A stretch of DNA of 64,000 nt, taken from an uncultured bacterium. GTDB lineage: Bacteria; Patescibacteriota; Minisyncoccia; UBA6257; GWB1-50-10. The notes beneath the pieces were generated by a model. The model was not told where the DNA came from. It saw only the letters and a list, made by a program, of their open reading frames with translations, and made no database searches. Location of the stretch: contig CAVRNT010000002.1 of assembly GCA_963722655.1 (NCBI GenBank), positions 138,520 through 202,519 on the forward strand. The letters are read 5' to 3'. The position numbers and the translations under genes are program-made. Shown one piece after another: positions 20,365-61,050 of this stretch; within the stretch, counting starts at the first letter, position 1, and the number at the start of each line of letters is the position of its first letter.

Positions 20365-20398
20365 CAATGGATAAAGAATTACAAAAGATTCTCGTCTT

Positions 20399-20650
20399 AT
20401 GAGCAAAAAAGGGATTTCTGATGGCGTAGTGCATAAAGTGCCGCCGGATTTACTGAAGGCTCTCGTATCTGACCGAGCGGCGCGAACAGCGTGGCAGGAC
20501 ATTACGCCGCTCGCGCGCAATGAATGGGTCTGCTGGACCATCTCCGTCAAAAAACCGGGGACCAGAAAGCAGCACGTTCATAGGGTATGCACCGAGCTCA
20601 AGGAGGGAATGCGCCGTCCTTGTTGTTGGGCCGGTTGTCCCCATCGTTGA
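20399..20650 (+). CDS. YdeI/OmpD-associated family protein (DUF1801-like)
   Basis: 83 aa. VPPDLLKALVSDRAARTAWQDITPLARNEWVCWTISVKKPGTRKQ fits the YdeI C-terminal domain pattern. Lower GC. Immediately downstream of tRNA-Gln. Confidence 0.5.
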   Translation: MSKKGISDGVVHKVPPDLLKALVSDRAARTAWQDITPLARNEWVCWTISVKKPGTRKQHVHRVCTELKEGMRRPCCWAGCPHR

Positions 20651-20671
20651 AACTATTGAATACTCCTTATT

Positions 20672-20702
20672 AAAACAATCTCGTGCGAGGTTGTTTTATT
20701 GA
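20672..20702 (+). terminator. Intrinsic terminator after the YdeI-like gene
   Basis: AACAATCTCG-TGC-GAGGTTGTT stem (9 bp, one G-U) followed by TTATTGATTG. Confidence 0.4.
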
Positions 20703-20750
20703 TTGAATATTGAGTGACATTTATATTTTCTTCTTTTGGGGCAGTGATTT

Positions 20751-21764
20751 TTAGTGCGGGGAAATCAAACCTTGGATGTAATTGAATATACCTTGAATTT
20801 GCCCTCCGATGTTTTGAGGCACCGACAGTGAAGATGAAGAGGATCCGGCCACCTGACGTGGAGGGGACTGAATATTTTTTGGCGTTATTTTGAATAAATT
20901 TCCAATAAAAGAAAGCATCTTTTTAACTCCCGAAATAACAGTGTTCCCTACCGCAATGGCAGCAGTTTTAACCCCGCTGATGATAATACCAAATCCCGTT
21001 TTCCCGCTCTGGACTACATTGTTTGCGGATGGCGCAGCGACTGTCAGGAGAGGCCCGTTTATATTGTTAGGTGACCCCGGCGGCACAAAACGAGGTGGTG
21101 ATGAGGCGGGCGACGCCGTGTGCGGCACCGCAGTTTGAGGGGCACGTGCCGTCGGCGTTTTCGTAGACGGTGGGCTTGGGCTCTGGGATGGGGCTGCCGG
21201 CAGGGCCGCGGGCACACCAATCACCGTTCCGGTTTGTTGGACCGCTGTCGCAGCGCTCGCCAGCGCGACTTCGTAGCTCACCGTCCCGCACGAACTTGTA
21301 TTCGTGCAATTGAAGCTAACCCATCCGATGTTCTCGCCATACGCAAATCCGGAAAAATTGCCGGACCCGTCGATAGTCACGCCGTAACTCACTGTAAGGC
21401 ATGAGGAAGTGTTTGCGCAGCTGAAACTTATCCAGCCGACGTTTTCGCCCCACGCGTAGCCGGAAAGGTTTCCGGAGCCATCGTTCGTAACCCCGTAAGG
21501 CACGGTCAGGCATGAAGAGGTGTTCGAGCAATTCAAACTTATCCAGCCGACGTTCTCCCCCCAAGCGTAGCCAGTAAGCGCGCTTGTGCCTACGTTGACA
21601 TTCCCTTGTGAGGTTCCGAAATTAAGCCAGCCGACGTTCTCCCCCCACGCGTAGGCGTTCGTCGCGTCAATGCCGGCGGCAAGCACATTCGTCCAGGTAA
21701 ATAAAAAAATTAAGAGCCCCATGAGGAGCAGATAGTAATACCTATTTTCACCCAGCTTGCTCAT
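20751..21764 (-). CDS. Secreted repeat protein with four AWGENVGW-type repeats
   Basis: Signal/TM N-terminus, then four roughly 37-aa repeats (GYAWGENVGWISxxCxNTSSCLTVxYGVTxDGSGNxSG), each with a Cys pair. Pro/Ser-rich linker and a hydrophobic C-terminal segment. ATG at 21764 preferred over the GTG at 21785. Confidence 0.6.
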   Translation of the reverse strand: MSKLGENRYYYLLLMGLLIFLFTWTNVLAAGIDATNAYAWGENVGWLNFGTSQGNVNVGTSALTGYAWGENVGWISLNCSNTSSCLTVPYGVTNDGSGNLSGYAWGENVGWISFSCANTSSCLTVSYGVTIDGSGNFSGFAYGENIGWVSFNCTNTSSCGTVSYEVALASAATAVQQTGTVIGVPAALPAAPSQSPSPPSTKTPTARAPQTAVPHTASPASSPPRFVPPGSPNNINGPLLTVAAPSANNVVQSGKTGFGIIISGVKTAAIAVGNTVISGVKKMLSFIGNLFKITPKNIQSPPRQVAGSSSSSLSVPQNIGGQIQGIFNYIQGLISPH

Positions 21765-21768
21765 AGGA

Positions 21769-22032
21769 TCACTGACAGACGCCACCGGTCAGCTTAGTTA
21801 TGATGCAACGCGAGACCGCAACCGCGCTTCCGGTCGAGCTCGCGCTCACGCCGGATGAATTGAAAGTCCCAGCCAGCGCATTATATATATCTCCCAACGT
21901 GTTCATGGTAGCCGCAGGAATGGCCAGCGGCGTGAAAGTTCCAGCTTGAGCGACCCTGATGAGCGATGTAACAACTACGACGGATGCTATGATGATCGCC
22001 GTTTCAAGGATGGCTCGCCATATTTTCCTCAT
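21769..22032 (-). CDS. Small secreted protein sharing the N-terminal module of the downstream giant surface protein
   Basis: MRKIWRAILETAIIIASVVVVTSLIRVAQA signal peptide. Mature N-terminus GTFTPLAIPAATMNTLGDIYNALAGTFNS aligns almost residue-for-residue with GSLTPSTSPASTMNSLSDVYNAIAGTFDS of ORF 22037..24355. Two C-terminal Cys. Confidence 0.5.
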   Translation of the reverse strand: MRKIWRAILETAIIIASVVVVTSLIRVAQAGTFTPLAIPAATMNTLGDIYNALAGTFNSSGVSASSTGSAVAVSRCIITKLTGGVCQ

Positions 22033-22036
22033 TTGA

Positions 22037-42402: not shown

Positions 42403-42885
42403 ATGGCGACCCGCCATTTGGCCCGAACGATAGTCCTCCAGTCGCTCTACGAGTGGGATTTTTACAACCGCGAGACCGATCTCACGACCATCATCGAACG
42501 GAACTTGAACGAATTCGGCCCCGGCATCGACGAGCCGGATTTTGTTTGGCGCATCGCGAAAGGCGTCATTGAACATCTCAAGGATTTAGATGCCACGATT
42601 GTCCGCGTTGCCCCCGAGTGGCCGCTCCACCAGATCGCCATCATCGACCGGAACGTCCTCCGGATCGGCCTATACGAGCTAATGTACGCCGACCAAAGCG
42701 AGGTCCCGCCCAAGGTCGCCATCAACGAGGCGATCGAGATCGCCAAGAACTATGGCGGCCAGAACTCGCCAAAGTTCGTGAACGGGGTCTTAGGCACCGT
42801 CTACCGCGAAATGGAAGCGGCCGGCAAGATACCGAAACAAGAGGAAAAAAAAGAGAAGGATAAAAAAGACGCCCCGGAAAAATAA
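42403..42885 (+). CDS. nusB: Transcription antitermination factor NusB
   Basis: [16 protein letters not shown]...[51 protein letters not shown]. Confidence 0.8.
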
Positions 42886-42907
42886 CGGGGCGTTGAATTT
42901 ACGATGA

Positions 42908-43699
42908 TCACAAGAGCGAGTTCTCTTTTTGTTTCTTAAAATATTTCCTAAGAATATCAATGATGTCTTCGGCGACTTCTTTCTCCGGCTTATCGCCGTC
43001 AACCGATCGAAATATTCCCTCTCCGTCATCGCGATCCATACCTCTTTCGTAGACGTTATTCCAATAGCGCAACACCGGAAGGTCTTCACCATTCAAAGAC
43101 TTACTGGACTCAAAAGAACGCGCCACGGCTGCTTTTGGGTCGGAACGAATGAATATGTTCACATCAGGGTAATAGTATCGATCGAGAGCCGTTTTTTCTT
43201 CCTTGAACATCCTTTCGGCCACGCAACTGCCAAAACCGAAGTTCTCCGTCGAGTAGATCGCGCGCGATCTGCTCCTGAAGACAAAGAAGTTTTCATTGAC
43301 CTTCGGTATGACGTTGAACTTCAGGTCGCAAAGCTCGTCGCAAACGATGAGCAATCCAAGGTCGAAAGCATCCGGCCTATCGCCCATTTGCAGGGATTTC
43401 GATATCTGCTCGATTCGCAATGGAATGTCGGAAAAGCTTTTTTCGAAGTACTCGCCGAAGTCGTTCAGAAACCGACGAACGGCGGGTGCGAATTCTATAA
43501 TGGCGAGCTCTGATGTCGCCGCCGGTTCAGACTTTTTGTCGACCGCCAATTTAAACATCCGCATGAAGGTGGAATTTGTCCTTTCCTTATAGCCGGCTAC
43601 TTTGATCCCTCGATCTTTGGCGTAAGCTGCCACTTTCCCGAAGACCTTCGATCTCCCAGAGAAAGGAATCCCGAAAAAAACAACGAAAATGCCGTTCAT
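42908..43699 (-). CDS. P-loop kinase-like protein (thymidylate/dNMP kinase-like) with Arg-substituted Walker A
   Basis: VVFFGIPFSGRSKV resembles GxxGSGKST of Tmk/dNK but has R in place of the Walker Lys. ...YAKDRGIKVAGYKERTNSTFMRMFK resembles the Tmk lid/REPGGT region. Lower GC. Adjacent to thymidylate genes. Confidence 0.4.
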   Translation of the reverse strand: MNGIFVVFFGIPFSGRSKVFGKVAAYAKDRGIKVAGYKERTNSTFMRMFKLAVDKKSEPAATSELAIIEFAPAVRRFLNDFGEYFEKSFSDIPLRIEQISKSLQMGDRPDAFDLGLLIVCDELCDLKFNVIPKVNENFFVFRSRSRAIYSTENFGFGSCVAERMFKEEKTALDRYYYPDVNIFIRSDPKAAVARSFESSKSLNGEDLPVLRYWNNVYERGMDRDDGEGIFRSVDGDKPEKEVAEDIIDILRKYFKKQKENSLL

Positions 43700-43829
43700 T
43701 ATTTTCTCCTTTTCAAAAAACCAACTTTAGAGTACCAGCCGCAACGGGGGTTGTAAACCGTTGACACCGCACCCGGTTTTGCCTAAGGTAAGCGTGGTAA
43801 CTATACAACTATAAACAAGGAGAATTGCG

Positions 43830-44477
43830 ATGAATGACCTGTTCGGTCCCGGCAGTAATTTCGACAATCGTTTTGTCGCCGATCACGCAGAACTCAAAGA
43901 AAGAGTGGGTGCCTGTCGCAAACTGAGCAAGAAGATAGTCCTGACTTCAGGCGCTTGGGACATACTCCATATCGGCCATTGCGGCTATCTGGAAGCGGCT
44001 AAAAAGTCGACGGGTTCCAACGGCGAAAATACCGTTCTGATAGTCGGTGTGGATAGCGACGAAAAGATACGCGCCAAGAAGGGTAAGAGCCGTCCCATCG
44101 TCCCAGAAAAAGAACGGATGGGAATCCTCTGCCACATTCGGCACGTCGACCTGGTGGTCTTGAAAAACCAAGGCGAAGAAAAATGGGCGTTGATCAAGGC
44201 GGTCAAGCCCGACATTCTCGTCATTTCGGAAAGGACGGAATATTCCGAAGATGAGCGGAACCAGCTCAAAGAGTGGTGTGGAGAGATAGTCGTCCTGGAA
44301 TCACAAGCCACCACATCGACAACCGCTAAGATCAGATTGCTTATAGTGGGCGTGGCTCGAGAGGCCAGGGAAAGCTTCAATAAGCTCGAGAAGGATATTT
44401 TGGACATTTTGAGCGAGTTCAAGAACTTCCTGGACCAGCTGCCAAGCGGCGTGGAGAAAAGCGAGGATAAGAGATGA
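43830..44477 (+). CDS. Cytidylyltransferase-like nucleotidyltransferase (HxGH class)
   Basis: VLTSGAWDILHIGHCGYLEAAKK, the (T/H)xGH motif of TagD/RfaE-II/PPAT-type nucleotidyltransferases. AAGGAGA RBS. The stop overlaps the next gene's ATG. Confidence 0.55.
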   Translation: MNDLFGPGSNFDNRFVADHAELKERVGACRKLSKKIVLTSGAWDILHIGHCGYLEAAKKSTGSNGENTVLIVGVDSDEKIRAKKGKSRPIVPEKERMGILCHIRHVDLVVLKNQGEEKWALIKAVKPDILVISERTEYSEDERNQLKEWCGEIVVLESQATTSTTAKIRLLIVGVAREARESFNKLEKDILDILSEFKNFLDQLPSGVEKSEDKR

Positions 44478-45334
44478 AGACCGTTCTTGCTTACGTTCCC
44501 GTACTGCACCGCGGCTACGTCGATTTCTTCAAGCGTCATGGCGGGCCGAAAAGCGCTTTGTATATTTTCGGACGAGAATTGATAGAGAGATTCGATTTCT
44601 TCCGAAAGGACATCAGAGCGCTTGACCCGCACGAAGCCGCCAAGACGATCAAGGCCCTCGACCTGTTCGGTAGCGTGATGATCACCGATGATTCTTCTCT
44701 TGAACTTCTATCTATGACGAAACGCAGCTTGATCATGCCAGACGAGGATGTTTCCCGAGCCATCGCGCAGGAAAGCCTCGCCGGATGCGGTGTTACTTTC
44801 GACGCCGTTTTCCTCCGATGGGACTCAAAAAGTTCCGTCCGGAAATGCGACGTGAAAGCGGACCGGACCGTCTCGCGGGAGGCCTGTGCAACAATGATGA
44901 TGCGGGCCGCTCAAAAAGAAGGCGAGAAAAGTTCGGATTGGTGGCGGCATGTCGGCGCAATCGTGGCACGCGGCGAAGAAACGATATTGGTCGCTTATAA
45001 CCACCACGTTCCATCCCCCCACATGCCCTACGCTTTCGGCGACCCGCGGAGCTACTTCAAAAAAAGTATCAACATCGAGATATCGACGGCTTTCCACGCA
45101 GAAGCTTCAGCTATCGCCTCCGCCGCCGCAAACGGCATCAATTTATCCTCGGCCGACATTTACACCACGACGTTCCCCTGTCCGCCTTGCGCCAAGCTCA
45201 TCGCCTACAGCGGCATCAAGCGATTGCTCTTTAAAGACGGCTATTCCATGCTGGATGCCCAAGATATTCTGCGTTCCAAGGGTATTGAGATCGTTCGCGT
45301 CACGGATTTAGAAAAAAACGCCCCGCTTCCATAA
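44474..45334 (+). CDS. dCMP/cytidine deaminase-family protein with a roughly 130-aa N-terminal extension
   Basis: The C-terminal half carries the zinc-binding HAE (FHAEASAI) and PCxxC (PCPPCAKLI) motifs. The N-terminal domain has no recognised family. Confidence 0.65.
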   Translation: MKTVLAYVPVLHRGYVDFFKRHGGPKSALYIFGRELIERFDFFRKDIRALDPHEAAKTIKALDLFGSVMITDDSSLELLSMTKRSLIMPDEDVSRAIAQESLAGCGVTFDAVFLRWDSKSSVRKCDVKADRTVSREACATMMMRAAQKEGEKSSDWWRHVGAIVARGEETILVAYNHHVPSPHMPYAFGDPRSYFKKSINIEISTAFHAEASAIASAAANGINLSSADIYTTTFPCPPCAKLIAYSGIKRLLFKDGYSMLDAQDILRSKGIEIVRVTDLEKNAPLP

Positions 45335-45354
45335 TACCGGAAACGGGGCTTTTA

Positions 45355-46323
45355 TTAACCTATTTTTTCTTCTTTTTTCTTCGCGCTCATCCTGAATTTT
45401 AGGTCAGCGAACTCCAGATCGTTTGGATTGTACGGCACTAGAACGTGAACATGCAGGTGAGAAACGGTGCCGCCGTTAAATTTTGCGTCACCGAAACGGA
45501 TTCCGACGCCCCCGCTCTCAATGTTGTATTCTTTTTCTAGCCAGCCTACCATCTCGATCATTTCAGCTCCAGCGAGAGGATTTAATTCTGACATTCGTTC
45601 GGCATGATCCAAAGAAATCAAGAGAAAGCTGCGTTTAGCATTCTCATACCTCCATTGGTTCTCTGTCACAATCCAGAATTTTCCTTCTTTCAGTATCGGC
45701 TTTGAATGCTCTTTCAACAGATTTTCTTTACAGAATGGACACTCCCCGCGAGCTTGAATACGTTCCAAGGCTTCACGCTGTTCATCAGAACGAGCATTTC
45801 TCAAGACCACGAAAGATTTTCTCTTAAGGTCTTGGAACACGAAAGCATGGTCGTCCACCCCTGGATTAGCGGAGTACCTAGCATCACCGTCTCCCAACCA
45901 TTCTGATTCATCAATTGTCGGAAAGAAAACATCTCCTTCCGGCGCGCATTCAACCAAAGTCTGGTACATTTTATGCGCGTACGGTAGAAATAATGCGTAG
46001 ATTTCTGCTCCACCAATCACAAAAACCTCTGTCTCATTCTGCACGAGATCAATGGCCTCCTGCACAGAGTGGGCAATTTCAAAACCAGGAAGCGAAAGAT
46101 CATGATTGCGTGTCAGGACGATGTTACGCCTTTTCGGCAATGGTTTACCGGTCCGCCGCAAAATCGCTTCCGCGGTCTTCCGCCCCATAATCACAGCATG
46201 GCCTTCAGTTATGGCCTTAAATCGCCTTAAATCGCTCTTCAGATGCCATGGCAGATCTCCGTTTTTACCTATGACCCGGTTTTGGGCCATAGCGACGATG
46301 ATGGATATCATACCGGTGTCCAT
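45355..46323 (-). CDS. folA: Dihydrofolate reductase fused to a C-terminal HIT (histidine triad) domain
   Basis: The N-terminal roughly 160 aa carry the DHFR motifs ISIIVAMAQNRVIGKNGDLPWHLKSDLRRFK...VIMGRKT. The C-terminus carries CPFCKE and the triad GGTVSHLHVHVLVP (HxHxHxx). The ATG overlaps the thyA-like gene by 16 nt. Confidence 0.7.
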   Translation of the reverse strand: MDTGMISIIVAMAQNRVIGKNGDLPWHLKSDLRRFKAITEGHAVIMGRKTAEAILRRTGKPLPKRRNIVLTRNHDLSLPGFEIAHSVQEAIDLVQNETEVFVIGGAEIYALFLPYAHKMYQTLVECAPEGDVFFPTIDESEWLGDGDARYSANPGVDDHAFVFQDLKRKSFVVLRNARSDEQREALERIQARGECPFCKENLLKEHSKPILKEGKFWIVTENQWRYENAKRSFLLISLDHAERMSELNPLAGAEMIEMVGWLEKEYNIESGGVGIRFGDAKFNGGTVSHLHVHVLVPYNPNDLEFADLKFRMSAKKKEEKIG

Positions 46324-47225
46324 ATTCTCCTCCTTTCAAGCTGGGGGTGGTAATCCTTGACCGTGAAATGCTCTGGCCGAAAAGAGAAAATATCGGTGAC
46401 AGACTGATCCAGTTCGACCGTGGAGAATCTCTGTGGCTCGGTTTGGAGCATATCCTTCACATCCTGGACCTGCTTAACGTAGATGTGGGCGTCGATAATG
46501 GCATAGACTAGTTCTTTCGCCCGGTAGCCTGTTACTTGGGCTAGCATCAACGTCAGGGCCGCATATTGAATAATATTGCAAACCAACCCGACCGGTACGT
46601 CAGCACTCCGCTGAAGATGGAATAGGCTGAACTCTTTCTTGTCCGGTATGAGTTCGACATCGAACCAACCATGGCAGGGAGCTACTACAACCTTTTGTTG
46701 TTTACCCTTACCGCGGAAGGTATACTGCGGCACCCAAGGGCTCACGAAGTGGGTCCGCAGGTGAGGCAATTCTTTCATCTGTTCGATCAAATTGGTTATC
46801 TGATCAAATGGTTTCCCTTCCGCAGTCGGAAACCTTCGCCAGGCGGCTCCGTAAGAACCGGGACCGAGGTCGCCGGCCGCAAGGCCGCGCTTAGCGCACT
46901 TTTCCGGCGTCACCCATCTATCCCACCAACTGCAGCCGAATTTAACTAGCTCTTCTTGGGTTTGGGCGCCGTTCAAAAAAGCGGTGATTTCCCCCAATGA
47001 TTGGTTGAATATGGACGACGTCTTCTTGCCGGGCGCGACCAAATCCCTTTCAGTAATGATCGGGAACCCGTTCTCCATGTCGAACCTTATGAGATGACCG
47101 AAGACCTTAAAAGCATCTTCTCCCTGCTGAGGGTGCACGAGCTTTGGGCTTCTCAAGATCCTGCTCAACAGATCACGATACTGGTGGTCTGGGTACCTCA
47201 AATTGAAATCCCTGTAATGTATCAT
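46308..47225 (-). CDS. thyA: Thymidylate synthase (ThyA family, divergent)
   Basis: GDLGPGSYGAAWR, APCHGWF (catalytic Cys), LQRSADVPVGLVCNIIQYAALTLMLAQVTG, DAHIYV. Asn retained in the NIxxY block, consistent with dUMP specificity. AGGAGGT RBS. Confidence 0.7.
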   Translation of the reverse strand: MIHYRDFNLRYPDHQYRDLLSRILRSPKLVHPQQGEDAFKVFGHLIRFDMENGFPIITERDLVAPGKKTSSIFNQSLGEITAFLNGAQTQEELVKFGCSWWDRWVTPEKCAKRGLAAGDLGPGSYGAAWRRFPTAEGKPFDQITNLIEQMKELPHLRTHFVSPWVPQYTFRGKGKQQKVVVAPCHGWFDVELIPDKKEFSLFHLQRSADVPVGLVCNIIQYAALTLMLAQVTGYRAKELVYAIIDAHIYVKQVQDVKDMLQTEPQRFSTVELDQSVTDIFSFRPEHFTVKDYHPQLERRRIWTPV

Positions 47226-47291
47226 TAACTACCTCCTATTTAGTTATGTATTAGCTGGCCTTAATATGCCTCAATGGTGGCATCGGCGTCA

Positions 47292-47319
47292 ATAGAAAAC
47301 CCCGCCGAGAGGCGGGGTT
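47292..47319 (-). terminator. Intrinsic terminator after rplK
   Basis: Minus-strand AACCCCGCC-TCTC-GGCGGGGTT hairpin followed by TTTTCTATT. Confidence 0.55.
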
Positions 47320-47334
47320 CCATTTCCGGATCGG

Positions 47335-47760
47335 TTAATCGACGACCTTTATGCCCATATTGTGAGCCGTGCCTTCGATTATCTTCATCGCGGATTCAAC
47401 GTCGTTCGCGTTCAAATCCACCATCTTCTTCTCGGCGATGGCTTTGAGATCGGCCTTCGTAATCTGGCCGACCACTTTCTTACCGGACTCGCCCGAACCC
47501 TTCTCGACGCCGGCGGCCTTCTTGATAAGGGCCGAGGCGGGCGGGGTTTTGAGCTTGAACTCGAAGGAACGGTCCTCGTAGATCGTGATCTCGGCTGGGA
47601 TCACGTCCCCCTTCATCTCCTTCGTCGCCTCGTTGAACTGCTGGACGAAAGCGCCGATGTTCACGCCGTGCTGGCCCAGAGCCGGGCCGATGGGAGGAGC
47701 CGGGGTCGCCTCGCCAGCTTTGATCTGCAATTTAATAGTCGTTTTTATCGGTTTGGCCAT
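47335..47760 (-). CDS. rplK: 50S ribosomal protein L11
   Basis: [43 protein letters not shown]... Start at the internal ATG (47760). The ORF-track start at 47850 overlaps nusG. Confidence 0.9.
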
Positions 47761-47767
47761 GATGTTT

Positions 47768-48328
47768 TTATATCTTTCTGACTTGCAATGAATCCAGCTC
47801 GACGAGCGTGTCCCGGCCGAAGATGGGAACGAGCACTTTGACCTTGCCATGCTCTTCGTCCACCTCGGAGACTTTGCCTTCTTGGTCCTTGAACGGACCG
47901 TCCGTTATTTTTACCACCTCGCCTTCCTTCAAGTCAACCTTGAACTTCGGTTCCGCCCCGCCCAGCCGCGCCAAAAGGTCGTCCACCTCAGTCTTCGAAA
48001 GCGGCGTCGGCGTCGCGCTATCCGCCCCGACGAAACCGGTCACCCGCGGGGTGTTCCGGACGACGTACCACGAGTCGTTGTCGAGGATCATCTCCACGAG
48101 GACATAACCCGGGTAGATTTTCTCCTCGGTCTTCAACCGCTTGCCGTTCTTGATCTTGATCTTCGTCTCTTTGGGGACGACGACGCTGAAGATCTTGTCG
48201 GTCATCGAAAGTGATTCCACCCGCTGCTTCAAATAGCGGGCCACCGCGTCCTCGTAGCCCACGTAGGTGTGGATGGCGTACCAGGCGCGGTTCTCGTTCG
48301 TTTTTTTCGCTTCCGATTTTATGAGCAT
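47768..48328 (-). CDS. nusG: Transcription termination/antitermination factor NusG
   Basis: NGN domain ([18 protein letters not shown]) and KOW C-terminus ([22 protein letters not shown]). Start at MLIKSE (48328), 2 nt after the secE stop. Confidence 0.85.
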
Positions 48329-48329
48329 T

Positions 48330-48515
48330 TTACAAAACCGTCCTCTGGAGGATCTGGACGAAGATGAAGTCCAGTAGGCCAAGGAAAAGCGAGAGGCCGA
48401 CCGAAAAGATGATCACGAAAACCGTGTAGCGCACCGTCTCTTCGCGGCGCGGCCAGTTGACCCGCTTCAATTCCTCGCGGGACTCCCGGAAAAAGCTCTT
48501 GATCTTTTCGGTCAT
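48330..48515 (-). CDS. secE: Preprotein translocase subunit SecE
   Basis: 61 aa. Single C-terminal TM (RYTVFVIIFSVGLSLFLGLLDFIF) preceded by an amphipathic segment. Canonical position upstream of nusG. Confidence 0.8.
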   Translation of the reverse strand: MTEKIKSFFRESREELKRVNWPRREETVRYTVFVIIFSVGLSLFLGLLDFIFVQILQRTVL

Positions 48516-48594
48516 TGGATTCGGCTAAATTAAAAAGCCCTGAAGGCCTTTAGACCAATCTATCATACTCTGGGGATCTAAGCAACCCTCCGGC

Positions 48595-49200
48595 TTAAAG
48601 TTGGGCATCTTCGCTCGGAGCGGGCTCCGCGCTTTTGATCTCTGGGGGTTGTGGCGCCGGGACGGCGCTGAACTTTTCCGGCTTCACGAGCGCGACCGCA
48701 ATGAGGTAGGAAACGAAGCCGATGACGATACCGCCCAAGATGTCCATCGGATAATGGACGCCCACGAAGATTCGGGCGACGCCGACCAGAGTTGAAAGGA
48801 CGAGGAACCACGTCCCCCACTTTCGATCCAAGGCAAAAAAGAGCGTGAAAGCGATGGCGAAGAAGAAGGTGACGTGACCCGAAGGGAAAGAGGCGCCACT
48901 CTCGCCGATCAAAGGCGTGAAGCCCAGCGTGACGAACGGGCGGGCGATTGGGTAGAGAAAACGGACGGCCTCCGTGATGATGCCGCGCGAAATGAGCGCC
49001 GCGAGAGCGAGTATGAGGAATACGCCGAACTTCCGCTTGGCCGTCTTTTGTTTGAAAATGAAGACCAGAAGCGCCAAGCCGAGAAGGTAAGGCAAATAGA
49101 GCGCGAGGAAGACGCCGAGCGCATCCAGCAGGGGCGCTACCCCTGAAAGACCGTGGATCGCCTTGAAAACGGCGACGTCGAGCGGAAAGGTGTCCAGCAT
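48595..49200 (-). CDS. PAP2-family membrane phosphatase (undecaprenyl-diphosphatase-like)
   Basis: KxxxxxxRP-like (YPIARPF), PSGH (ASFPSGH) and SRxxxxxHxxxD (ARIFVGVHYPMD) acid-phosphatase motifs. Six TMs. Confidence 0.7.
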   Translation of the reverse strand: MLDTFPLDVAVFKAIHGLSGVAPLLDALGVFLALYLPYLLGLALLVFIFKQKTAKRKFGVFLILALAALISRGIITEAVRFLYPIARPFVTLGFTPLIGESGASFPSGHVTFFFAIAFTLFFALDRKWGTWFLVLSTLVGVARIFVGVHYPMDILGGIVIGFVSYLIAVALVKPEKFSAVPAPQPPEIKSAEPAPSEDAQL

Positions 49201-49201
49201 T

Positions 49202-49420
49202 TTAGCGGCGCGTGAAAGGCAAAAGGCCCATCATCCGGGCGCGCTTGATCGCCTTCGCGATCTGGCGCTGGTGTTTAGCACAAAGTCCGGTATGACGCGG
49301 GTCGATAATTTTCCCTTGGCTCGAAACGAACCGTTTCAGGTTTTCGGTCTCCCGGAAATCGATGATCTGGGTGTTTTGCGAGCAGAAAAAGCATTGCTTG
49401 GCTATCTTCATTATTGGCAT
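49202..49420 (-). CDS. rpsR: 30S ribosomal protein S18
   Basis: KQCFFCSQNTQIIDFRETENLKRFVSSQGKIIDPRHTGLCAKHQRQIAKAIKRARMMGLLPF. Confidence 0.8.
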   Translation of the reverse strand: MPIMKIAKQCFFCSQNTQIIDFRETENLKRFVSSQGKIIDPRHTGLCAKHQRQIAKAIKRARMMGLLPFTRR

Positions 49421-49426
49421 TGGTTT

Positions 49427-49873
49427 TTAGAACGGTATCTCTTCCGGTTTGATGTCGTTTTGTTCTTCGAGGTTGATCTCGGGCAATTCTTCCTTGGGTG
49501 CTTCGTCCACGGCCGGTGCGCCGCCCGGACTCGCGCTGCCCCCGGTCGGCCGGGGTCCCAATTGCATCCTTTCGCAGATGATCTCGGTCGTTTTGCGGGT
49601 CTGGCCCTGCTTATCCTGCCAAGAACGCGTCTGGAGCCGACCTTCGACGAAGACGCTGCTGCCCTTCTTGAGGAACTGGTTCGCGATCTCCGCCTGCCGT
49701 CCCCAAACGACGACGTTGTGGAACTCGGCCCGCTTCTGCCTTTGGCCGCTCCGATCGGTGAAGAACGTGTTCGTCGCCACCCCGAACGAGGCGACCGCCT
49801 GCCCCGTGGGCGTCTGCCGCAGTTCCGGATCGCGGGTCAAATTCCCTAAAATGAATACTTTATTGACGTTCAT
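49427..49873 (-). CDS. ssb: Single-stranded DNA-binding protein
   Basis: MNVNKVFILGNLTRDPELRQTPTGQAVASFGVATN OB-fold N-terminus. Disordered Gly/Pro tail ending in an acidic ...EEIPF tip. Confidence 0.85.
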   Translation of the reverse strand: MNVNKVFILGNLTRDPELRQTPTGQAVASFGVATNTFFTDRSGQRQKRAEFHNVVVWGRQAEIANQFLKKGSSVFVEGRLQTRSWQDKQGQTRKTTEIICERMQLGPRPTGGSASPGGAPAVDEAPKEELPEINLEEQNDIKPEEIPF

Positions 49874-49893
49874 CTCCCCTTTATCTTACCACA

Positions 49894-50343
49894 CTACTTG
49901 GAGATTTCTTCGATCTTCTTCTCCAAGGCCTCGTTCGTGAGGACGTCCGGCGCGGGCTTGCTTTCTGTCCGCAGGCGGCGGAAAAATCCCCCCCTTTCGC
50001 GCGCGGCTCCCGCCGCGACGCCACCACCCATATCCGGCGAGATCGCGACCGCAGAGGCCGACCTCTCTTCAGCCAAGGTGACGATGAAACGCAGAACGCC
50101 AAGAGCGAGGTTCAGATCGCCCGTCAGGGCCGAGACGAGCGCGGGATCGAGCGCGAAGACGATCGAACCCATGAAAGCGTTGCTTTCCTTTTTGATCGGA
50201 TAGCTCAAACGGAACTTGGCAAGGTCCCTTTCGGCGATGACCTCCACCCCGTGCTTGCCGAGGACTTTTTTGACGGGCGAGGCGTTCTCGTCCTTGAGCC
50301 AAAAGGTCAGTTCGTATTTTTTCTTCGTTGTTTCTTCGGTCAT
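49894..50343 (-). CDS. rpsF: 30S ribosomal protein S6 (with C-terminal extension)
   Basis: KKYELTFWL...FRLSYPIKKESNAFMGSIVFALDP aligns with S6 (YEIVFMV...QLAYPINK...YVLMNV). Canonical rpsF-ssb-rpsR order. Confidence 0.7.
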   Translation of the reverse strand: MTEETTKKKYELTFWLKDENASPVKKVLGKHGVEVIAERDLAKFRLSYPIKKESNAFMGSIVFALDPALVSALTGDLNLALGVLRFIVTLAEERSASAVAISPDMGGGVAAGAARERGGFFRRLRTESKPAPDVLTNEALEKKIEEISK

Positions 50344-50345
50344 TC

Positions 50346-54086
<3,741 letters not shown>

Positions 54087-57000
54087 ACTCGTACCCGACG
54101 CTGAGTCCCAAGGATTTGAGCTCCGAGACCAAGACGTTGAACGAGGCCGGGATGTTCGGTTTCCGGATCTCCTCGCCGCGGATGATGGATTCGAAGGCCG
54201 CGGAGCGCCCCATCACGTCATCGGACTTAATGGTCAGCATCTCCTGGAGGGTGTGGGCCGCGCCGTACCCTTCGAGGGCCCAGACCTCCATTTCGCCGAA
54301 GCGCTGGCCGCCGAGCTGGGCCTTGCCGCCCAAGGGCTGCTGGGTGATCAAGGAATAAGGACCGGTCGAGCGCACGTGCATCTTGTCCTCGACCAAGTGG
54401 TTCAGTTTCATCATGTAAATGTAGCCCACGGTCACCGGGTCGCGGAACGCCTTGCCGGTCAAACCGTCGTAGACGGTCATTTTGCCGTCCTCGCGATAAC
54501 CCGCCTTCTTGAGCTCCTCTTTGATCTCGTCCTCGGAGGCGCCGACGAAGTTCGGCACGACCGCCCGGTAGCCCATCTTTTTGGCGGCGAGACCGAGATG
54601 GGTCTCAAGGATCTGACCGAGGTTCATGCGGGAAGCGACGCCCAAGGGGTTCAAGACGATGTCCACCGGCGTGCCGTCCTCGAGGTACGGCATATCTTCC
54701 ACTTTGCGGATCTGGGAGATGACACCTTTGTTGCCGTAGCGGCCGGCGAGCTTGTCGCCCGCCCGGACCTTACGGAGCTGGGCCACTTCGACCTGGATCT
54801 TCTTGATAATGCCCGGGTCGAGTTTGTCACCCTTGTCACGGGAGAAGATCTTGATGCCGATGATGCGCCCTTGCTTGCCGTGGGGCAGGATGAGGGAGGA
54901 GTCCTTTACGTCGCGGGCCTTCTCACCGAAGATGGCGCGAAGTAGCCGCTCCTCGGACGTGAGCTCGGACTCTCCTTTGGGCGATATTTTCCCGACCAGA
55001 ATGTCGTTCGCCCTCACCTCGGCACCGATGCGGACGATGCCATCCGCGTCCAAGTTGCGGAGCTTATCCTCGGCCACGTTCGGGATGTCCATCGTCGTCA
55101 TTTCGGGACCGAGCTTCGTCTCGCGGACGAGGCAGGTGAAGGTCTCGATGTAGATCGAGGTGAAGCGGTCCTCGCGGGCGACCCGCTCGGAAAGGATGAT
55201 GGCATCCTCGAAGTTCAAACCGTGCCACGGCAGAAAGGCCACGAGGAGGTTCTGGCCGAGGGCGAGTACGCCGTCCTTCGTCGCTGGACCGTCGGCCAAG
55301 ACCGTCCCTTTCCTCACCTTATCGCCCACCGCGACCGCCGGCCGCTGGGACATACAGGTCGATTGGTTGGAACGCTTGAATTTGTAAATAGGGTAGGATC
55401 GCGCACCGTCCGCGGTCTTGACCGTCACGCCACGGCCGTCGGCCTCCGTGACGACACCCGAAGCGTCGGCGAGGATGACCTGGCCGGAATCCTGGGCGGC
55501 CCGCTCCTCGAGGCCCGTACCGATCAAGGGCTCCTCGGGATTCACGGTCGGCACCGCCTGCCTTTGCATGTTCGAACCCATGAGGACGCGGTTCGCGTCG
55601 CTGTGTTCCAAAAACGGGATGATGCCGGTCGCGACGCTCGTCATCTGGTCGGGCGAAACGTCCATCAGCTCCACTCCCCCCTTGGGGCAGGTGCTCGGTT
55701 TGCCCTTGACCCGCGCGGGCACGACTTCAGGGGAGATGTTGCCGCTCTCCTCAAGCGGCGTGTCGGCCTGAATGATGTTGTACTTTTGCTCCGTGATAGC
55801 GTCGAGCCAGACGACCTCCTTGGTCACGATGCCATTTTTGACTTTGAAATAAGGGGCTTCGAGGAAGCCGAAGTCGTTCACCCGGACGAAGTTCGAAAGA
55901 TAATGGACCAAACCGATGTTCGCGCCTTCCGGTGTCTGAATGGGGCAAAGTCGCCCGTAATAGGACGGATGGACGTCGCGCACTTCGAAGCCGGCCCGTT
56001 CCCGGGTGAGACCGCCCGGTCCCATCGCCGAGAGCCTCCGCTTGTGCTCCAGCTCCGCCAAGGGGTTCACTTGGTCCATGAACTGGGAAAGCTGGGAGGA
56101 AGCGAAGAAATCGCGCACGACGGAGGTGAGGAGCTTGTAATTGATGAGCTGGGCCGGCTGGAGGCCGTGGCGGTCCAAAGTGGACATTCGGTCCTGGACA
56201 CCGCGCCGGAGGCGGGCAAAACCGATGCGCAAGCGCGATTGGACCAGTTCCCCGACCGAGCGGATCCGGCGGTTACCCAAATGGTCGATGTCGTCCGGTT
56301 CGGCCGCCGGGTCGTTGTTCAAACGGACGATCTCCCGCACGGCGGCGAGGAGGTCCTCCAAGTCCAAAAGCCGACTCTCCTTCTTCTTGATATCGAGACG
56401 CTGGTTGAACTTGTACCGGCCGACCGGGCTCAGGTCGTACCGATCGAAACGCGAGAACATCGGCTCGATAAGGAGCTTGGCATTCTCGACGGTCGCGAGG
56501 TCGCCGGGGCGGAGGCGTTTGTAGATTTCGATGAAGGCCTCGTCGGCGGTCTTCGTGTCATCCTTTTTAAGCGTCGCGGGAAGAAACTTAAAATCGCCGG
56601 CATCGACGGCAGCGAACTCTTTGAGGATCGCGTCGTTCTCGGCCAGGCCGAAGAGACGCAAAAGCTGGGTGATCGGCGCCTTACGGCGGCGGTCGATCTT
56701 CACCCCGATGTAACCGTCGGACTCGGTCTCGATCTCGAGCCAAGCACCGCGGTTCGGGATGATCTTCGCGCCGAAAAGCTTCCGGCCGCGGTAGACGTTG
56801 CCGGTGAAATAGATCCCGGGCGAGCGGATGATCTGGGAGATGACGACGCGCTCCACGCCGTTCACGATGAACGTCCCGCGGTCGGTCATGATCGGGAAAT
56901 CGCCCAAGTAGACCTCCTGGGTCTTGGATTCCTTCGTCTCCCGATTCACGAGCTTCACGTTGACGCGCAAGGGCGCCTCGTAGGTCTGGTCCTTCTCGAT

Positions 57001-57219
57001 GGCCTTCTGCTCCGTATACTTCGGCTGGTCGAACTTATAGTCGAGGAAGGAAAGTTCCAGTTCCTTGCCGGTGTGGTCCTTGATCGGCGAGATCTCCTCG
57101 AAAAGCTCTTTGAGACCGGTTTTGACGAACCAGGCATAGGACTTCGTCTGGATCTCCACCAGGTTGGGGGCGGTGTAGACCGGGCCGTTGTATTTTGAGA
57201 AAACTTTCAGCTTCATAAT

Positions 57220-58239
57220 TTAGAAATACCTCGCTTGGTTCTGATTCTGTTCCGTGAGGGTCTTGGCGAAGATCGTCGCTTTGGTCTTCGGGTCGCTCAA
57301 ATAGTAGAGGTAGGCGCTCTTTTCGGGATTCAAGGCGTCGGTTATCGAGGAAAGACCGGGGTTGCCGATCGGCGTCGGCGTCAAACCGGCGTGGAGATAG
57401 GTGTTGTAAGGCGAGGCGATCTTGAAGTCGGGCTTTTCTAGGGTGAGGTCGCCGCAAGTCTGCCAAGCCCCGGCGCATTTGGCGTAAGAGACGGTCGCAT
57501 CCAGTTGGAGCGGCATGCCGAGGGCGATCCGCTTCAAGAGGATACCCGCGACGAGCCGCCGGTCTTCGTCAGCCGCGACCTCCCGCTCCAAGTAGGAGGC
57601 GAGGATGAGCTTTTGGTACCAAGCCTTGTCCCCGGAGAGAACCGGCCAGGCCTTTTCCTCGAAGTTGTCCAAAAATCTCTTCACGACCGCGTCGGGCGTG
57701 GAATCGATCTCGAACTGGTAGGTGTCGGGGAAGAGGAATCCTTCGAGCGAGGTCGCGCCTTGGAGGAAGGGATAGGTCGCCTTGAAGGCGGCGAAGTCGT
57801 AATGCTCCAGCGTGCTTGAAGCGAGAACGTGGGCCGTAGCGAGGGCCGCGTCAACGTCCTTCAAGGTCGTCCCTTCGACGATCGTCACGCCCGTAACGTT
57901 CGCGCCGCCCGAGGTGAAAGCGCCGACGATCTGGGGAACGCTCATCGCGTCCGTGAGGACGTAGGCCCCCGGCTGGAAGCGACCCGCTTTGCCGGTCAAA
58001 AGTGAATAAAGTTTGAACACGGTGATGGATTTGATTAGACCCTCTTGGGAAAGACGGGCGCCGATTTCCCGGAAGCTCTCGCCTTTCGCGATCTCGAAGA
58101 CCGCTGAACCGCTCTTCGCCGCGCTGGGTTGCAAGCCGTAAAAGAAGTACGCCAAAAAGAGGATCAGGACCAAAATTCCTCCCAAGACAACAAGAATGCG
58201 CAGGCTAAGCAGCCCTCTTTGTTCAACGCGAGGATTCAA
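57220..58239 (-). CDS. mltG: Endolytic murein transglycosylase MltG (YceG-like)
   Basis: N-terminal TM, LysM-like segment, catalytic EGFLFPDTY motif. Apparent TTG start (no in-frame ATG retains the TM helix). Confidence 0.8.
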   Translation of the reverse strand: MNPRVEQRGLLSLRILVVLGGILVLILFLAYFFYGLQPSAAKSGSAVFEIAKGESFREIGARLSQEGLIKSITVFKLYSLLTGKAGRFQPGAYVLTDAMSVPQIVGAFTSGGANVTGVTIVEGTTLKDVDAALATAHVLASSTLEHYDFAAFKATYPFLQGATSLEGFLFPDTYQFEIDSTPDAVVKRFLDNFEEKAWPVLSGDKAWYQKLILASYLEREVAADEDRRLVAGILLKRIALGMPLQLDATVSYAKCAGAWQTCGDLTLEKPDFKIASPYNTYLHAGLTPTPIGNPGLSSITDALNPEKSAYLYYLSDPKTKATIFAKTLTEQNQNQARYF

Positions 58240-59311
58240 GTTTAATATGTTGAATGATACTCACTAGCACGGCGACCGTCAAGAGACTGGAGCCGCCGTA
58301 GCTCACAAAGGGCAAGGTGATGCCCGTGACGGGCACGAGGCCGAGGTTGGAACCGATATTTATCAAAAACTGGAAGAAGATTATCAAAAATGCCCCCAAG
58401 ATCAGGAATTTCCCCTCATTGCTTCCCGTCCTTAGCCCGATATCCATCAATCTATAGAAAAGGAGGAGGAATGTCAAGACGAGGAGAAGCGCTCCGAAAA
58501 GTCCCCACTCCTCGGTGAAGGCGGCAAAAAGGAAGTCGGTTTGGGCCTCGGGCAGGAAATGGAGGTGGGTCTGCGTTCCTTCCCCGAACCCCTTGCCGAA
58601 GAGCCCGGCGGAGCCGATGGCGATCTTCGCCTGAATCACGTTGTAGTTGATGCCCAAGGGGTCGCGGTTCGGCGAAAGGAAGGCGGTCAACCGGTCCTTT
58701 TGATAGGGTTTGAGGAAGGAGAACCAAAGGATGACGATGAGGAGGATCGCGACCAGAAGACCGATGAAGAACCGCTTCTTGTTGATGCCGCTCATCAGGA
58801 TGAAACCGAGCCAGATCGAAAGGACGACGATCGTGGAACCGAGGTCGGGATGGATCGCGATGAGGAACGCCGGCAATCCGGCGTAAAACCCGGAGGTGAA
58901 AAGGTACTTGGTCCGCCAGGCCGCCAAATGGCGGCGCGTGAAGAAACCGGCGAGGAGGATGATGAGCGCGAGCTTGGCGAGCTCCGCCGGTTCGAACTGG
59001 AAGCCGCCGATCAAAATCCAGCTCTTCGCGCCGCGGATGACGTGCGATTGGAGGTTCGAGACGACGAGAAAGAGGACGCTCAAGGCGTAGAGGCCGTACT
59101 GGAAGACCGGGGAGCGGATGAGCCAATCCCAATCGATGAAGACGCCGGCGAAGATGATGGCAAAAGCGATGATGTACCAAACGAGCTGCCTCTCAAAGAA
59201 TGACTGGTCGTAGCTCGCGAGCGTGACGAGCGATACGGCCGCGAGGAAAAAGAGCGCTCCCATGAGGAGCCAATCCATCTTGCGGAACCGGTCGAGGATG
59301 CTGCCGATCAT
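58223..59311 (-). CDS. rodA: SEDS-family peptidoglycan glycosyltransferase RodA
   Basis: Ten-TM protein with FLPEAQTDFLFAAFTEEWGLFG...TLPFVSYGGSSLL. Separate from the dcw-cluster ftsW, hence RodA. Confidence 0.8.
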   Translation of the reverse strand: MIGSILDRFRKMDWLLMGALFFLAAVSLVTLASYDQSFFERQLVWYIIAFAIIFAGVFIDWDWLIRSPVFQYGLYALSVLFLVVSNLQSHVIRGAKSWILIGGFQFEPAELAKLALIILLAGFFTRRHLAAWRTKYLFTSGFYAGLPAFLIAIHPDLGSTIVVLSIWLGFILMSGINKKRFFIGLLVAILLIVILWFSFLKPYQKDRLTAFLSPNRDPLGINYNVIQAKIAIGSAGLFGKGFGEGTQTHLHFLPEAQTDFLFAAFTEEWGLFGALLLVLTFLLLFYRLMDIGLRTGSNEGKFLILGAFLIIFFQFLINIGSNLGLVPVTGITLPFVSYGGSSLLTVAVLVSIIQHIKLESSR

Positions 59312-60048: not shown

Positions 60049-61050
60049 TTACTTACTTCGGAGTATCTTCGCCGCATCGTCCGGGTCAACGGTGTTTATC
60101 TCAATGCCGGTGCCGAGCTCGAAGCCGGCGTCGACGTTGAGCTTCGGGATAATCTCGATGTGCCACTTGTAGTGATGGTGGCGCCGCTTGTTCTCCACGG
60201 GTGCGGTGTGGATGAGAAAGTTGTAATCCGGGTCGTGGAGCTTCTTCTCGAGCCGGACGAGGGCCGTTTGGAGAGCGAGGATGACGCCCTGCAGTTCCGT
60301 CTCTTCCGCCTCTTCGAAATAAGGATTGGGGCGTTTAGGATAGACCCGCAGTTCGAACGGTTCGCGGGAGACGTAGGGAGCGAGGACCACCGCCTCGCGG
60401 TTCTCGAAAACGATGCGTTTCTTCTTCTTAAGCTCGTAGTTCATCAGCACGTCGTGGACCGATCGGCCGTGCGCCCGGAAATATCTCTCGGACGTCTCGA
60501 GAGCGCGAGCCACGTACGAAGGGATAATCGGCACGGTGAGAATCTGATAGTGCGGATGGAAAACGGAGGCGCCAGCCGCCACTCCCCAATTGTGGAAGAT
60601 GGAAACGTAGGCCACCTCCTTTTCCTTGGCGAGGTCGCGGTAGCGTTCTCCGAAGGAGTGAAAGACCTCTTGGGCCTCTACCGGGGAGAGATGGGCGAAG
60701 TTCTTGAAATGGTCCCGCGTAATGACCAGCTCGTGATGCCCCGTCCCTTGGACGGGTTCGTAAAAACCGTTGTGCTCCCCTTTGACCGGCCGACCGCCGT
60801 GGACGACCGCCGGATACTTGTTGGTCACGACCGCGAGCCGCCAGTCGCTCTTCGGTCCGCAAAGTAAGATGGGCGACCGGTCCCGGAAGGGGTTCTCGAA
60901 AGGACATCGGCTGATCGGTGTCGGCTTGCGCTTCGGCCGACTTTTGATCTCCTGCGGCCGCGCCCCCCGCCGGGTCGAAAGCAGGACCCAATTGCCGGAA
61001 ACGAGATCGTGGCGGAATTCGGAATGTCTTTCCATGCCCTTAATTTCCAT
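60049..61050 (-). CDS. GalT-family HIT nucleotidyltransferase (galactose-1-phosphate uridylyltransferase-like)
   Basis: C-x-F-E-N N-terminal zinc-site region (CPFENPF), HPHYQIL (HxHxQ catalytic motif) and a second half-barrel. Confidence 0.65.
   Translation of the reverse strand: MEIKGMERHSEFRHDLVSGNWVLLSTRRGARPQEIKSRPKRKPTPISRCPFENPFRDRSPILLCGPKSDWRLAVVTNKYPAVVHGGRPVKGEHNGFYEPVQGTGHHELVITRDHFKNFAHLSPVEAQEVFHSFGERYRDLAKEKEVAYVSIFHNWGVAAGASVFHPHYQILTVPIIPSYVARALETSERYFRAHGRSVHDVLMNYELKKKKRIVFENREAVVLAPYVSREPFELRVYPKRPNPYFEEAEETELQGVILALQTALVRLEKKLHDPDYNFLIHTAPVENKRRHHHYKWHIEIIPKLNVDAGFELGTGIEINTVDPDDAAKILRSK

Follow-up and report, generated by a model that had tools for sequence, protein, structure and literature searches.

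A compact set of five genes for thymidylate synthesis lies between nusB (42403-42885, plus strand) and rplK (47335-47760, minus strand) in a 64,000-nucleotide stretch of DNA from an uncultured Patescibacterium (GenBank assembly GCA_963722655.1, contig CAVRNT010000002.1, positions 138,520 to 202,519), which is here called the window. The genes encode a nucleotidyltransferase (NT), a two-domain deaminase protein (DEAM), a dihydrofolate reductase fused to a HIT domain (DHFR::HIT), a thymidylate synthase (ThyA) and a homolog of the thymidylate kinase Tmk (KIN). This module is very probably the standard thymidylate cluster of the Patescibacteria, or Candidate Phyla Radiation (CPR), standing at its ancestral site beside secE-nusG-rplK. 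An earlier note on this DNA had described it as a self-contained module of lower GC content, acquired en bloc from, for example, a phage or another phylum. The five open reading frames (ORFs) were present as described and their families were confirmed with Pfam and NCBIfam. The layout was also as described, with two convergent operons, thyA-folA::HIT and NT-DEAM, and a divergent kinase gene. On the other hand, the proposed acquisition en bloc fails, as synteny is conserved, the phylogeny is nested in the host lineage and no link to phages was found.

Conservation of the cluster in Patescibacteria

Metagenomes were scanned with an alignment of DEAM. A total of 524 stretches matched, and the best 80 were taken into a tblastn census. 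Loci inside and outside this census are referred to below by number. NT was located directly upstream of DEAM on the same strand in 62 of 63 loci, and a HIT gene was found directly downstream of DEAM, in convergent orientation, in 53 of 61. ThyA was at most 2.6 kb away in 38 of 39 loci, and DHFR was present somewhere in the locus in 24 of 27. In 24 of 43 loci rplK was found no more than 2 kb upstream, within an adjoining secE-nusG-rplK block, and the cassette also stands beside rplK in seven further loci, so that this neighbourhood is seen in the majority of loci whose length allows it to be judged. The usual order is SecE, NusG and L11, followed by NT and DEAM, which converge with HIT, DHFR and ThyA, and then by SHMT (Tmk, Dut, FolD).

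The cassette was found in Saccharibacteria, Kerfeldbacteria, Parcubacteria-group and other Patescibacteria genomes. A scan of species-representative genomes (L005-L008) recovered it in Saccharibacteria and another Patescibacterium, where ThyA is accompanied by an unfused HIT gene, and DEAM and NT are encoded on the other strand; rplK-nusG is adjacent in two of these loci. Among individual loci, L015 and L016 display SecE-NusG-L11-NT-DEAM, HIT-DHFR-ThyA and SHMT-(Tmk-Dut), while L011 and L014 carry ThyA-(DHFR)-HIT, DEAM-NT and L11-NusG-SecE. L010, from Kerfeldbacteria, harbours ThyA-DHFR::HIT, DEAM-NT and Tmk. In L009 the order is DnaE-ThrS-MiaA-GatB-Tmk, then ThyA-DHFR::HIT converging with DEAM-NT, and then L11-NusG. 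The window and L009 have both flanks in common, being bounded by DnaE-ThrS-MiaA and, at the opposite end, by L11-NusG-SecE. Compared with L009 and with the order usual elsewhere, the block of four genes lying between the position of Tmk and rplK is inverted in the window, and L041 likewise has rplK on the ThyA side.

In none of the relatives' loci examined was nusB seen near the cassette or next to rplK. The earlier note had asked whether nusB stands directly next to rplK elsewhere; it does not, and it is the cassette itself that is the usual neighbour of rplK. The position between nusB and rplK is correct as a description, but it does not represent a foreign insertion. Literature searches gave no account of an association among NT, the deaminase and HIT. 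The core thyA-folA-dCMP deaminase pathway is known. What is new here is the association of NT, a cryptic domain and HIT with this core, their fusions, the anchoring at secE-nusG-rplK and a remodelled clade of ThyA.

With respect to the rplK side of the window, the minus strand at 47335-59311 carries FtsW/RodA, YceG, rpoB, rpoC, rpsF, ssb, rpsR, PAP2, secE, nusG and rplK. The classical rplKAJL-rpoBC order is broken, in that rplK is not followed, and rpoB is not preceded, by rplA, rplJ or rplL. None of these three genes was recognised among the window ORFs examined.

Phylogeny and the question of foreign origin

Neighbour-joining trees of the 33 loci carrying all markers were constructed, one from L11 and NusG and the other from ThyA, DEAM and NT. 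The neighbours of the window were identical in both trees (L009, L011, L014, L021, L030/31, L036/37 and L088-90), and the marker and cassette distance matrices were correlated with r values of 0.60-0.65. Loci L038, L044, L066 and L092 were placed differently in the two trees. This comparison with ribosomal L11 and NusG, which the earlier note had put forward as a check, places the genes of the window within the host lineage.

We also searched for relatives in phages. The best phage ThyA was only 34% identical to that of the window (tblastn, 50,697 phage records, of which 3,584 matched), whereas identities of 60-76% were found in CPR. When IMG/VR was scanned with the DEAM alignment, no viral contig encoding a relative of DEAM was detected. 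The block is not bordered by a tRNA, an integrase or meaningful repeats, and the inverted repeats flanking the inverted block are 14-23-mers at chance level only. Uptake of the module as a foreign island from a phage or another phylum, with insertion between core operons, would agree with the lowered GC content at third codon positions (GC3) of all five genes and with the presence in PHROGs of phage counterparts of all five families. These two points are set against a cassette and an rplK-side position that are conserved across Patescibacteria classes, the distance between ThyA and every matching phage record, the absence of DEAM relatives from IMG/VR contigs and of PHROGs matches to the DEAM N-terminal domain, the absence of mobility genes and flanking repeats, and the congruence of the trees. 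In other words, of the features that mark a genomic island the module displays atypical composition, but it is not absent in relatives, its phylogeny is not incongruent, and mobility genes, tRNAs and repeats are not found at its borders. We consider a phage or foreign origin exceedingly improbable.

The module had further been regarded as a key metabolic gain for a host dependent on salvage. This does not agree with the distribution of thymidylate and folate genes, which are a general trait of CPR; folA is present in 54.8%, glyA in 81.3% and folD in 79.7% of 4,581 CPR genomes (PMC11974145). CPR folA genes have also been reported to complement an E. coli delta-folA strain (PMC11974145).

Base composition and possible replacement within the phylum

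The lower GC content pointed out in the earlier note was confirmed by quantitative analysis. The GC3 values of the five genes are 0.58, 0.625, 0.634, 0.48 and 0.608 (0.585 for the module), while the mean of the 55 other window genes is 0.755 (standard deviation 0.085). The difference is significant (Mann-Whitney p=2.9e-4), as is the occurrence of five low-GC3 genes in a run (permutation p=0.007). The shift is mainly found at third codon positions, and GC1 and GC2 are far less affected. In 23 metagenome loci with enough flank genes, cassette GC3 minus flank GC3 averaged +0.008 (range -0.055 to +0.065), so that the value of the window, -0.17, is that of an outlier. We considered a general shift of the cassette toward intermediate GC, and rejected this on the basis of the same mean in the 23 loci and a correlation with flank GC3 that was negative and weak (r -0.49).

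Outliers in the opposite direction are L009 (+0.125), L014 (+0.095) and L010 (+0.092). The cassettes deviating upward occupy L009:8001-11380, L014:8001-11462 and L010:3051-6465. Taking into account these deviations from the flanks, together with the different placement of L038, L044, L066 and L092 in the cassette tree, our results suggest that the block is sometimes exchanged between Patescibacteria. The cassette closest to that of the window is L012 (ThyA 76% identical, DEAM C terminus 74%), which is found on a contig of 47% GC with a flank GC3 of 0.54-0.56, similar to the GC3 of the window cassette. The window itself is 57% GC, and its nearest neighbours in the L11 and NusG tree (L009, L011, L014, L021, L030, L036 and L088 were compared) are 31-44%. 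The host lineage thus appears to be a high-GC outlier among the sampled relatives.

The compositional anomaly is the sole part of the acquisition claim that survives, and the most it can support is replacement from another Patescibacterium. In such an event, the resident cassette and the adjacent tmk would have been replaced, or re-inserted in inverted orientation, by the homologous cassette of a Patescibacterium of lower GC, and the incoming copy would since have been ameliorated only in part. This would account at once for the GC3 dip, which includes KIN among the affected genes, the inversion and the odd kinase gene. The outlying size of the dip, the much smaller shift in GC1 and GC2, the resemblance to the composition of L012 and the deviating or discordant cassettes of other loci are all consistent with replacement. 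However, the nearest neighbours of the window are the same in the marker and cassette trees, 76% identity to L012 is far from that expected of a recent donor, and the block lacks flanking repeats, an integrase or a tRNA. All window proteins that were looked up are singletons at 90% identity, leaving no close relative of the host for a direct test, and the presence of other low-GC3 genes in the window makes local heterogeneity in composition an alternative. We therefore regard replacement as possible but doubtful. It agrees with a native thymidylate cluster in terms of function, and differs in recent history only.

Low GC3 was also observed elsewhere in the window. At 20294-24355, a tRNA-Gln (20294-20365) is followed by genes with GC3 of 0.55-0.62, encoding an OmdA-family protein and three ORF products without a Pfam match. 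A 772-residue ORF in this block contains tandem repeats of 183 nucleotides (61 residues) at 23238-23887 with strong GC skew, and acquisition of the block as a surface-protein island is possible. At 15868-16942, a gene for a NYN-domain protein (GC3 0.62) and an ORF of 86 residues (GC3 0.54) coincide with the minimum of local GC in the window, 0.46.

Thymidylate synthase

ThyA (46308-47225, minus strand, 305 residues) is a folate-dependent thymidylate synthase of a distinct clade. It matched PF00303 with an E-value of 3.6e-58 (197 bits, cut-off 24.3) and passed the equivalog model TIGR03284 (157.2 bits, cut-off 108.35). In E. coli numbering, the window protein retains C146, H147, E58, Y94, W80, W83, Q165, R166, S167, D169, N177, H207 and Y209. 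The catalytic residues, including the Cys of the PCH motif, are conserved in at least 119 of 120 homologs, with Y209 being either Y or F. The closest proteins, 60-76% identical, derive from uncultured bacteria, and those with a name are from Kerfeldbacteria, Parcubacteria, Colwellbacteria and "Patescibacteria group".

Asn177 specifies the uracil ring in ThyA, and dCMP hydroxymethylase has Asp at this position. The residue, N217 in the window protein, is invariant in all 120 homologs, and the residue check that the earlier note had recommended for distinguishing dTMP synthases from dUMP/dCMP hydroxymethylases thus points to dTMP synthase. On the other hand, the phosphate clamp of four arginines (R21, R166, R126' and R127') is incomplete. 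R166 and R126 are kept, but R21 is replaced by Gln (Q33 in the window protein; Gln in 97 of the 120 closest homologs) and R127 by Thr (Thr or His in all 120). Just before the catalytic P-C-H, members of the clade possess a basic insertion of approximately 12 residues (PQY..R-GKGKQQK), which may make up for the lost clamp arginines.

Can the cluster be involved in the synthesis of a modified pyrimidine, as the earlier note had left open? The ThyA homolog would then be a dUMP or dCMP hydroxymethylase, whose product would be processed by NT, HIT and the kinase. The loss of R21 and R127, the insertion beside the catalytic loop, and the presence of NT, HIT and a non-canonical kinase as otherwise unexplained partners would be in line with such a role. 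The invariant Asn177, in place of the Asp of dCMP hydroxymethylase, and the TIGR03284 score are not. DHFR, which would be needed only if dihydrofolate is formed, is co-translated with ThyA or fused downstream, SHMT, FolD, Dut and a canonical Tmk are found in the clusters of relatives, and glycosyl- or amino-transferases are not present. In addition, the protein P0063 and the ThyA proteins of L002 and L003, two loci with no NT, DEAM or HIT nearby, are 61-62% identical to ThyA of the window. Since the same clade occurs without these partners, this type of ThyA is not tied to them. A role in modified-pyrimidine synthesis is very unlikely. Given that DHFR is coupled to ThyA, and that relatives have SHMT and FolD in their clusters, the predicted products of ThyA are dTMP and dihydrofolate. 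P0063, which one source names as Dehalococcoidia, carries both the R21 and R127 substitutions.

DHFR and HIT domains

The DHFR::HIT ORF (45355-46323, minus strand, 322 residues) overlaps thyA by 16 nucleotides. Its N-terminal half is the DHFR domain (45829-46311, minus strand, residues 5-165), which matched PF00186 with an E-value of 1.9e-52 over model positions 1-156 of 159. The LPW motif and the context of the catalytic Asp (KSDLRRF) are found in the translation, as is the motif GDLPWHLKSDLRRF. The C-terminal half is the HIT domain (45358-45756, minus strand, residues ~190-322), which exceeded the cut-off of PF01230 only barely (21.8 against 21.5 bits, residues 233-298); the cut-off was also passed by four stand-alone HIT orthologs. 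The motifs in the window are CPFC, H72 and the triad H-L-H-V-H-V-L. Across 25 orthologs there is no variation in the CxxC, the His or the initial two His residues of the triad, and the third triad position is His or Gln. When the HIT profile was compared with the PDB, Hint/Fhit-type proteins were best (E 1.9e-7), followed by Ap4A phosphorylase (1e-3) and GalT (0.02). The domain has in common with the HIT superfamily of Hint/Fhit hydrolases, Ap4A phosphorylase and GalT the triad with its nucleophilic His, a zinc-type CxxC...H motif and the domain model. It differs as a distinct subfamily, with His or Gln as the third triad residue and with no PDB match better than the E-value given above.

In most relatives HIT is encoded by a stand-alone gene directly after thyA or folA, and the DHFR::HIT fusion was found in approximately 10 of 62 loci with a recovered HIT ORF. 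As in the bifunctional DHFR-TS of protozoa and plants, whose PDB entries are among the matches of ThyA, enzymes of the thymidylate cycle are joined in the window cluster. The difference is that DHFR is here fused to HIT, and ThyA is encoded by a separate, overlapping gene.

A second HIT paralog, more divergent than the first and often arranged in tandem with it, is present within or next to the cluster in many relatives; the window has only the copy fused to DHFR. The second gene was observed in L024, L033, L034, L044-L046, L051, L053, L065, L066, L082, L084, L091 and L092, as well as at L015:9566-10051, L005:12904-13455 and L006:176-775. Another HIT-related protein, a GalT-like one with two domains (DUF4921 / GalP_UDP_transf), is encoded at 60049-61050 of the window, between genes for a family-2 glycosyltransferase and triose-phosphate isomerase. 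L011 has the same trio of genes a few kb from its thymidylate cassette.

Nucleotidyltransferase and deaminase

NT (43830-44477, plus strand, 215 residues) belongs to the cytidylyltransferase family, and is of the HldC/TagD/CCT type. It matched PF01467 with an E-value of 1.8e-13 (51 bits, cut-off 21), and its best relative in the PDB was HldC (5x9q, E 8.9e-15). The motif LHIGH (H47-I-G-H50) and the C-terminal motif T-T-S-T-T-A-K-I-R169 are both present. Across nine orthologs G41, D44, H47-x-G49-H50, R96 and the TTSTTAKIR motif are invariant. As all family motifs are intact, NT is predicted to be an active cytidylyltransferase-like enzyme. An identity as domain II of HldE (ADP-heptose synthase) or as TagD was examined and rejected, as the scores against the equivalog models TIGR02199 (rfaE domain II / HldE; E 2.4e-29, 102 bits) and TIGR01518 (TagD; 40 bits) are far below the respective cut-offs of 181.5 and 165.

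DEAM (44474-45334, plus strand, 286 residues) starts within the last four nucleotides of NT (ATGA, 44474-44477). Its match to the deaminase family PF00383 (E 2.6e-14) is confined to residues 141-253. The C-terminal domain (44894-45334, plus strand, residues 141-286) represents a zinc-dependent deaminase of the dCMP-deaminase type. The zinc motifs H-A-E and P-C-x-x-C (PCPPC) are present, and the fold is closest to those of dCMP deaminases. The domain most likely deaminates a deoxycytidine nucleotide, with dCMP as the favoured substrate.

The N-terminal domain (44474-44878, plus strand, residues 1-135) gave no match in sequence searches (Pfam on 26 members, PDB profile, PHROGs and NCBIfam), including to PF01467. 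In the AlphaFold model, however, it is predicted to adopt a HUP alpha/beta fold closest to TagD, HldC and CCT. We thus regard it as a cryptic cytidylyltransferase-like domain, in which H12-R-G-Y15 replaces HxGH and Y15 is invariant. Comparison with the NT profile by hhalign gave a probability of only 0.4%; nevertheless, the H-x-G-[HY] motifs were aligned in register. Mean-field direct coupling analysis of 307 N-domain sequences gave weak support for parallel pairing of beta2 and beta3 and did not fix the strand order, and it was superseded by the AlphaFold model as the basis of the fold. The domain differs from the known cytidylyltransferases of PF01467 (TagD, CCT, ECT, HldC and the CyTase of Fom1) in that it is undetectable by sequence, carries HxGY rather than HxGH and is fused to a deaminase.

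We also identified a fusion of NT, N-domain and deaminase in a single protein of 469 residues (P0343), encoded on two contigs (ERZ1426824 and ERZ1426813). Its gene is convergent with a DHFR gene of 315 residues, a length corresponding to DHFR::HIT, and with ThyA (304 residues). In this lineage five functions are found in three polypeptides.

The deaminase core matched two models of defence proteins, NF041025 for an "anti-phage dCTP deaminase" with an E-value of 1.5e-17 and that of PADLOC for dCTPase (E 1.2e-20). The cluster might on this account be taken for an anti-phage system that depletes nucleotides, related to the defensive dCTP deaminases. However, the models have 437-630 positions, of which these matches span only approximately 75 in the catalytic core, and the predicted fold of the DEAM N-domain is that of a cytidylyltransferase, not a kinase. 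The housekeeping context beside ribosomal genes is conserved, and no other meaningful PADLOC match was found. The chance of a defensive function is close to negligible.

Between the convergent operons, a hairpin terminator is present at 45320-45349 (minus strand), with 8 G-C pairs in its 12-bp stem and a run of T residues after it. Its folding energy as RNA is -23.8 kcal/mol (z -4.5), and none of 200 shuffled sequences was equally stable. On the other side of thyA, the region 47226-47334 (minus strand) contains the terminator hairpin of rplK (47299-47323) and a promoter-like site for thyA (47292-47263).

The Tmk-like gene

KIN (42908-43699, minus strand, 263 residues) is transcribed divergently from NT. 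The 130-bp intergenic region (43700-43829) presumably contains the promoters of both, with Shine-Dalgarno sequences before the two start codons (AAGGAGA before the ATG of KIN); a scan for the sigma-70 consensus in this region gave no strong match. KIN has no Pfam match. Against TIGR00041 the E-value was 3.5e-4, far under the cut-off of the model, and a phmmer search of the PDB found Tmk from S. aureus (2ccj, E 6.9e-5). When compared with seven cassette-linked CPR Tmks by hhalign, KIN aligned over its full length with 94% probability (E 1e-7, 17% identity). The description as a Tmk-like P-loop kinase is thus correct with regard to homology, but the catalytic motifs are degenerate. Where the cassette-linked Tmks have GIDGSGK[STAF], the P-loop of KIN is GIPFSGRS, and the Walker A lysine is gone. 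The TMP-binding DR motif has become DE and the DRY motif SRS, and there are two insertions. In these respects, and in the lack of a Pfam match, KIN differs from the Tmk family (PF02223).

A search of 5.8 billion proteins for homologs of KIN retrieved KIN alone. The five-gene layout is shared by L010, in which a canonical Tmk stands at the place of KIN, and L009 also has Tmk there. As judged from its sequence, KIN represents the Tmk found at this position in relatives, in decayed or repurposed form. A second Tmk was not found in the 64-kb window.

Discussion

The results point with good confidence to a core pathway in which the deaminase, ThyA and DHFR act in succession, on the basis of the families to which they belong and of their intact catalytic residues. 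DEAM, through its C-terminal domain, would convert a deoxycytidine nucleotide, most likely dCMP, to its uracil form. ThyA would then methylate dUMP to dTMP with methylene-tetrahydrofolate, releasing dihydrofolate, from which the DHFR domain would regenerate tetrahydrofolate. In relatives, SHMT, FolD, Dut and Tmk would complete the thymidylate cycle. The earlier note had proposed a route from dCMP via dUMP and dTMP to dTDP with recycling of folate. We can support this as far as dTMP, together with the recycling of dihydrofolate, but the step to dTDP is not secured by KIN because its P-loop, DR and DRY motifs are changed.

The core resembles the thyA-folA "two-enzyme adaptive unit" of bacteria, as well as the set of dCMP deaminase, TS and DHFR in phage T4 and eukaryotes. 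The window cluster differs from these in that it regularly adds NT, the pseudo-cytidylyltransferase domain and HIT, is anchored beside secE-nusG-rplK, and has a ThyA of a clade without R21 and R127. NT, the DEAM N-domain and HIT accompany the core in essentially all relatives. As our best guess, held with low confidence, NT may pair with the pseudo-transferase domain of DEAM in the manner of the tandem domains of ECT, which would dock a (d)CTP-using enzyme on the deaminase. HIT, which would release nucleoside monophosphates from NMP-phosphate-X bonds, the type of bond that NT makes, would act on the ThyA/DHFR side. NT and HIT may thereby supply or gate dCMP or dUMP, for example by conversion of dCTP to dCMP or dUMP and pyrophosphate via a nucleotidyl intermediate. 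A purely allosteric role of NT, the N-domain and HIT, such as the sensing of dCTP, is about equally likely.

A bolder proposal is that NT, the pseudo-cytidylyltransferase domain and HIT constitute a branch of deoxypyrimidine metabolism that works by nucleotidyl transfer, is specific to CPR and is not matched by anything in model organisms. NT docked on the deaminase would generate an NMP-pyrophosphate-linked intermediate from (d)CTP, and HIT would cleave the bond next to ThyA. This would allow conversion of dCTP to dUMP, or activation of dTMP, without the usual pair of dCTP deaminase and dUTPase or a kinase. It would also account for the tolerance of a decayed Tmk in the window. We consider such a branch unlikely.

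Several points weigh against a native thymidylate cluster of conventional function. The functions put forward for NT, the N-domain and HIT are predictions from fold, motifs, adjacency and fusions. The predicted substrate site of ThyA is not a textbook one, with two of the four canonical clamp arginines replaced throughout the clade. With the Walker A lysine absent from KIN and no other Tmk in the window, the step from dTMP to dTDP appears unaccounted for. Finally, as the cassette does not in general show a GC3 dip, that of the window is not explained by strictly vertical descent.

As a near-invariant thymidylate supercluster of CPR tied to secE-nusG-rplK, the cassette provides a useful synteny marker. 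It indicates that dTMP synthesis is a core capability that the reduced genomes of CPR have retained, rather than acquired, and it brings to light a clade of ThyA with a remodelled phosphate-binding site. The near-perfect adjacency of NT, the cryptic domain and HIT to ThyA, DHFR and the deaminase, along with two independent kinds of fusion, provides a lead to new deoxypyrimidine enzymology or regulation in organisms that account for a large part of bacterial diversity. In oral Saccharibacteria, the proteins of the cluster could be selective targets.

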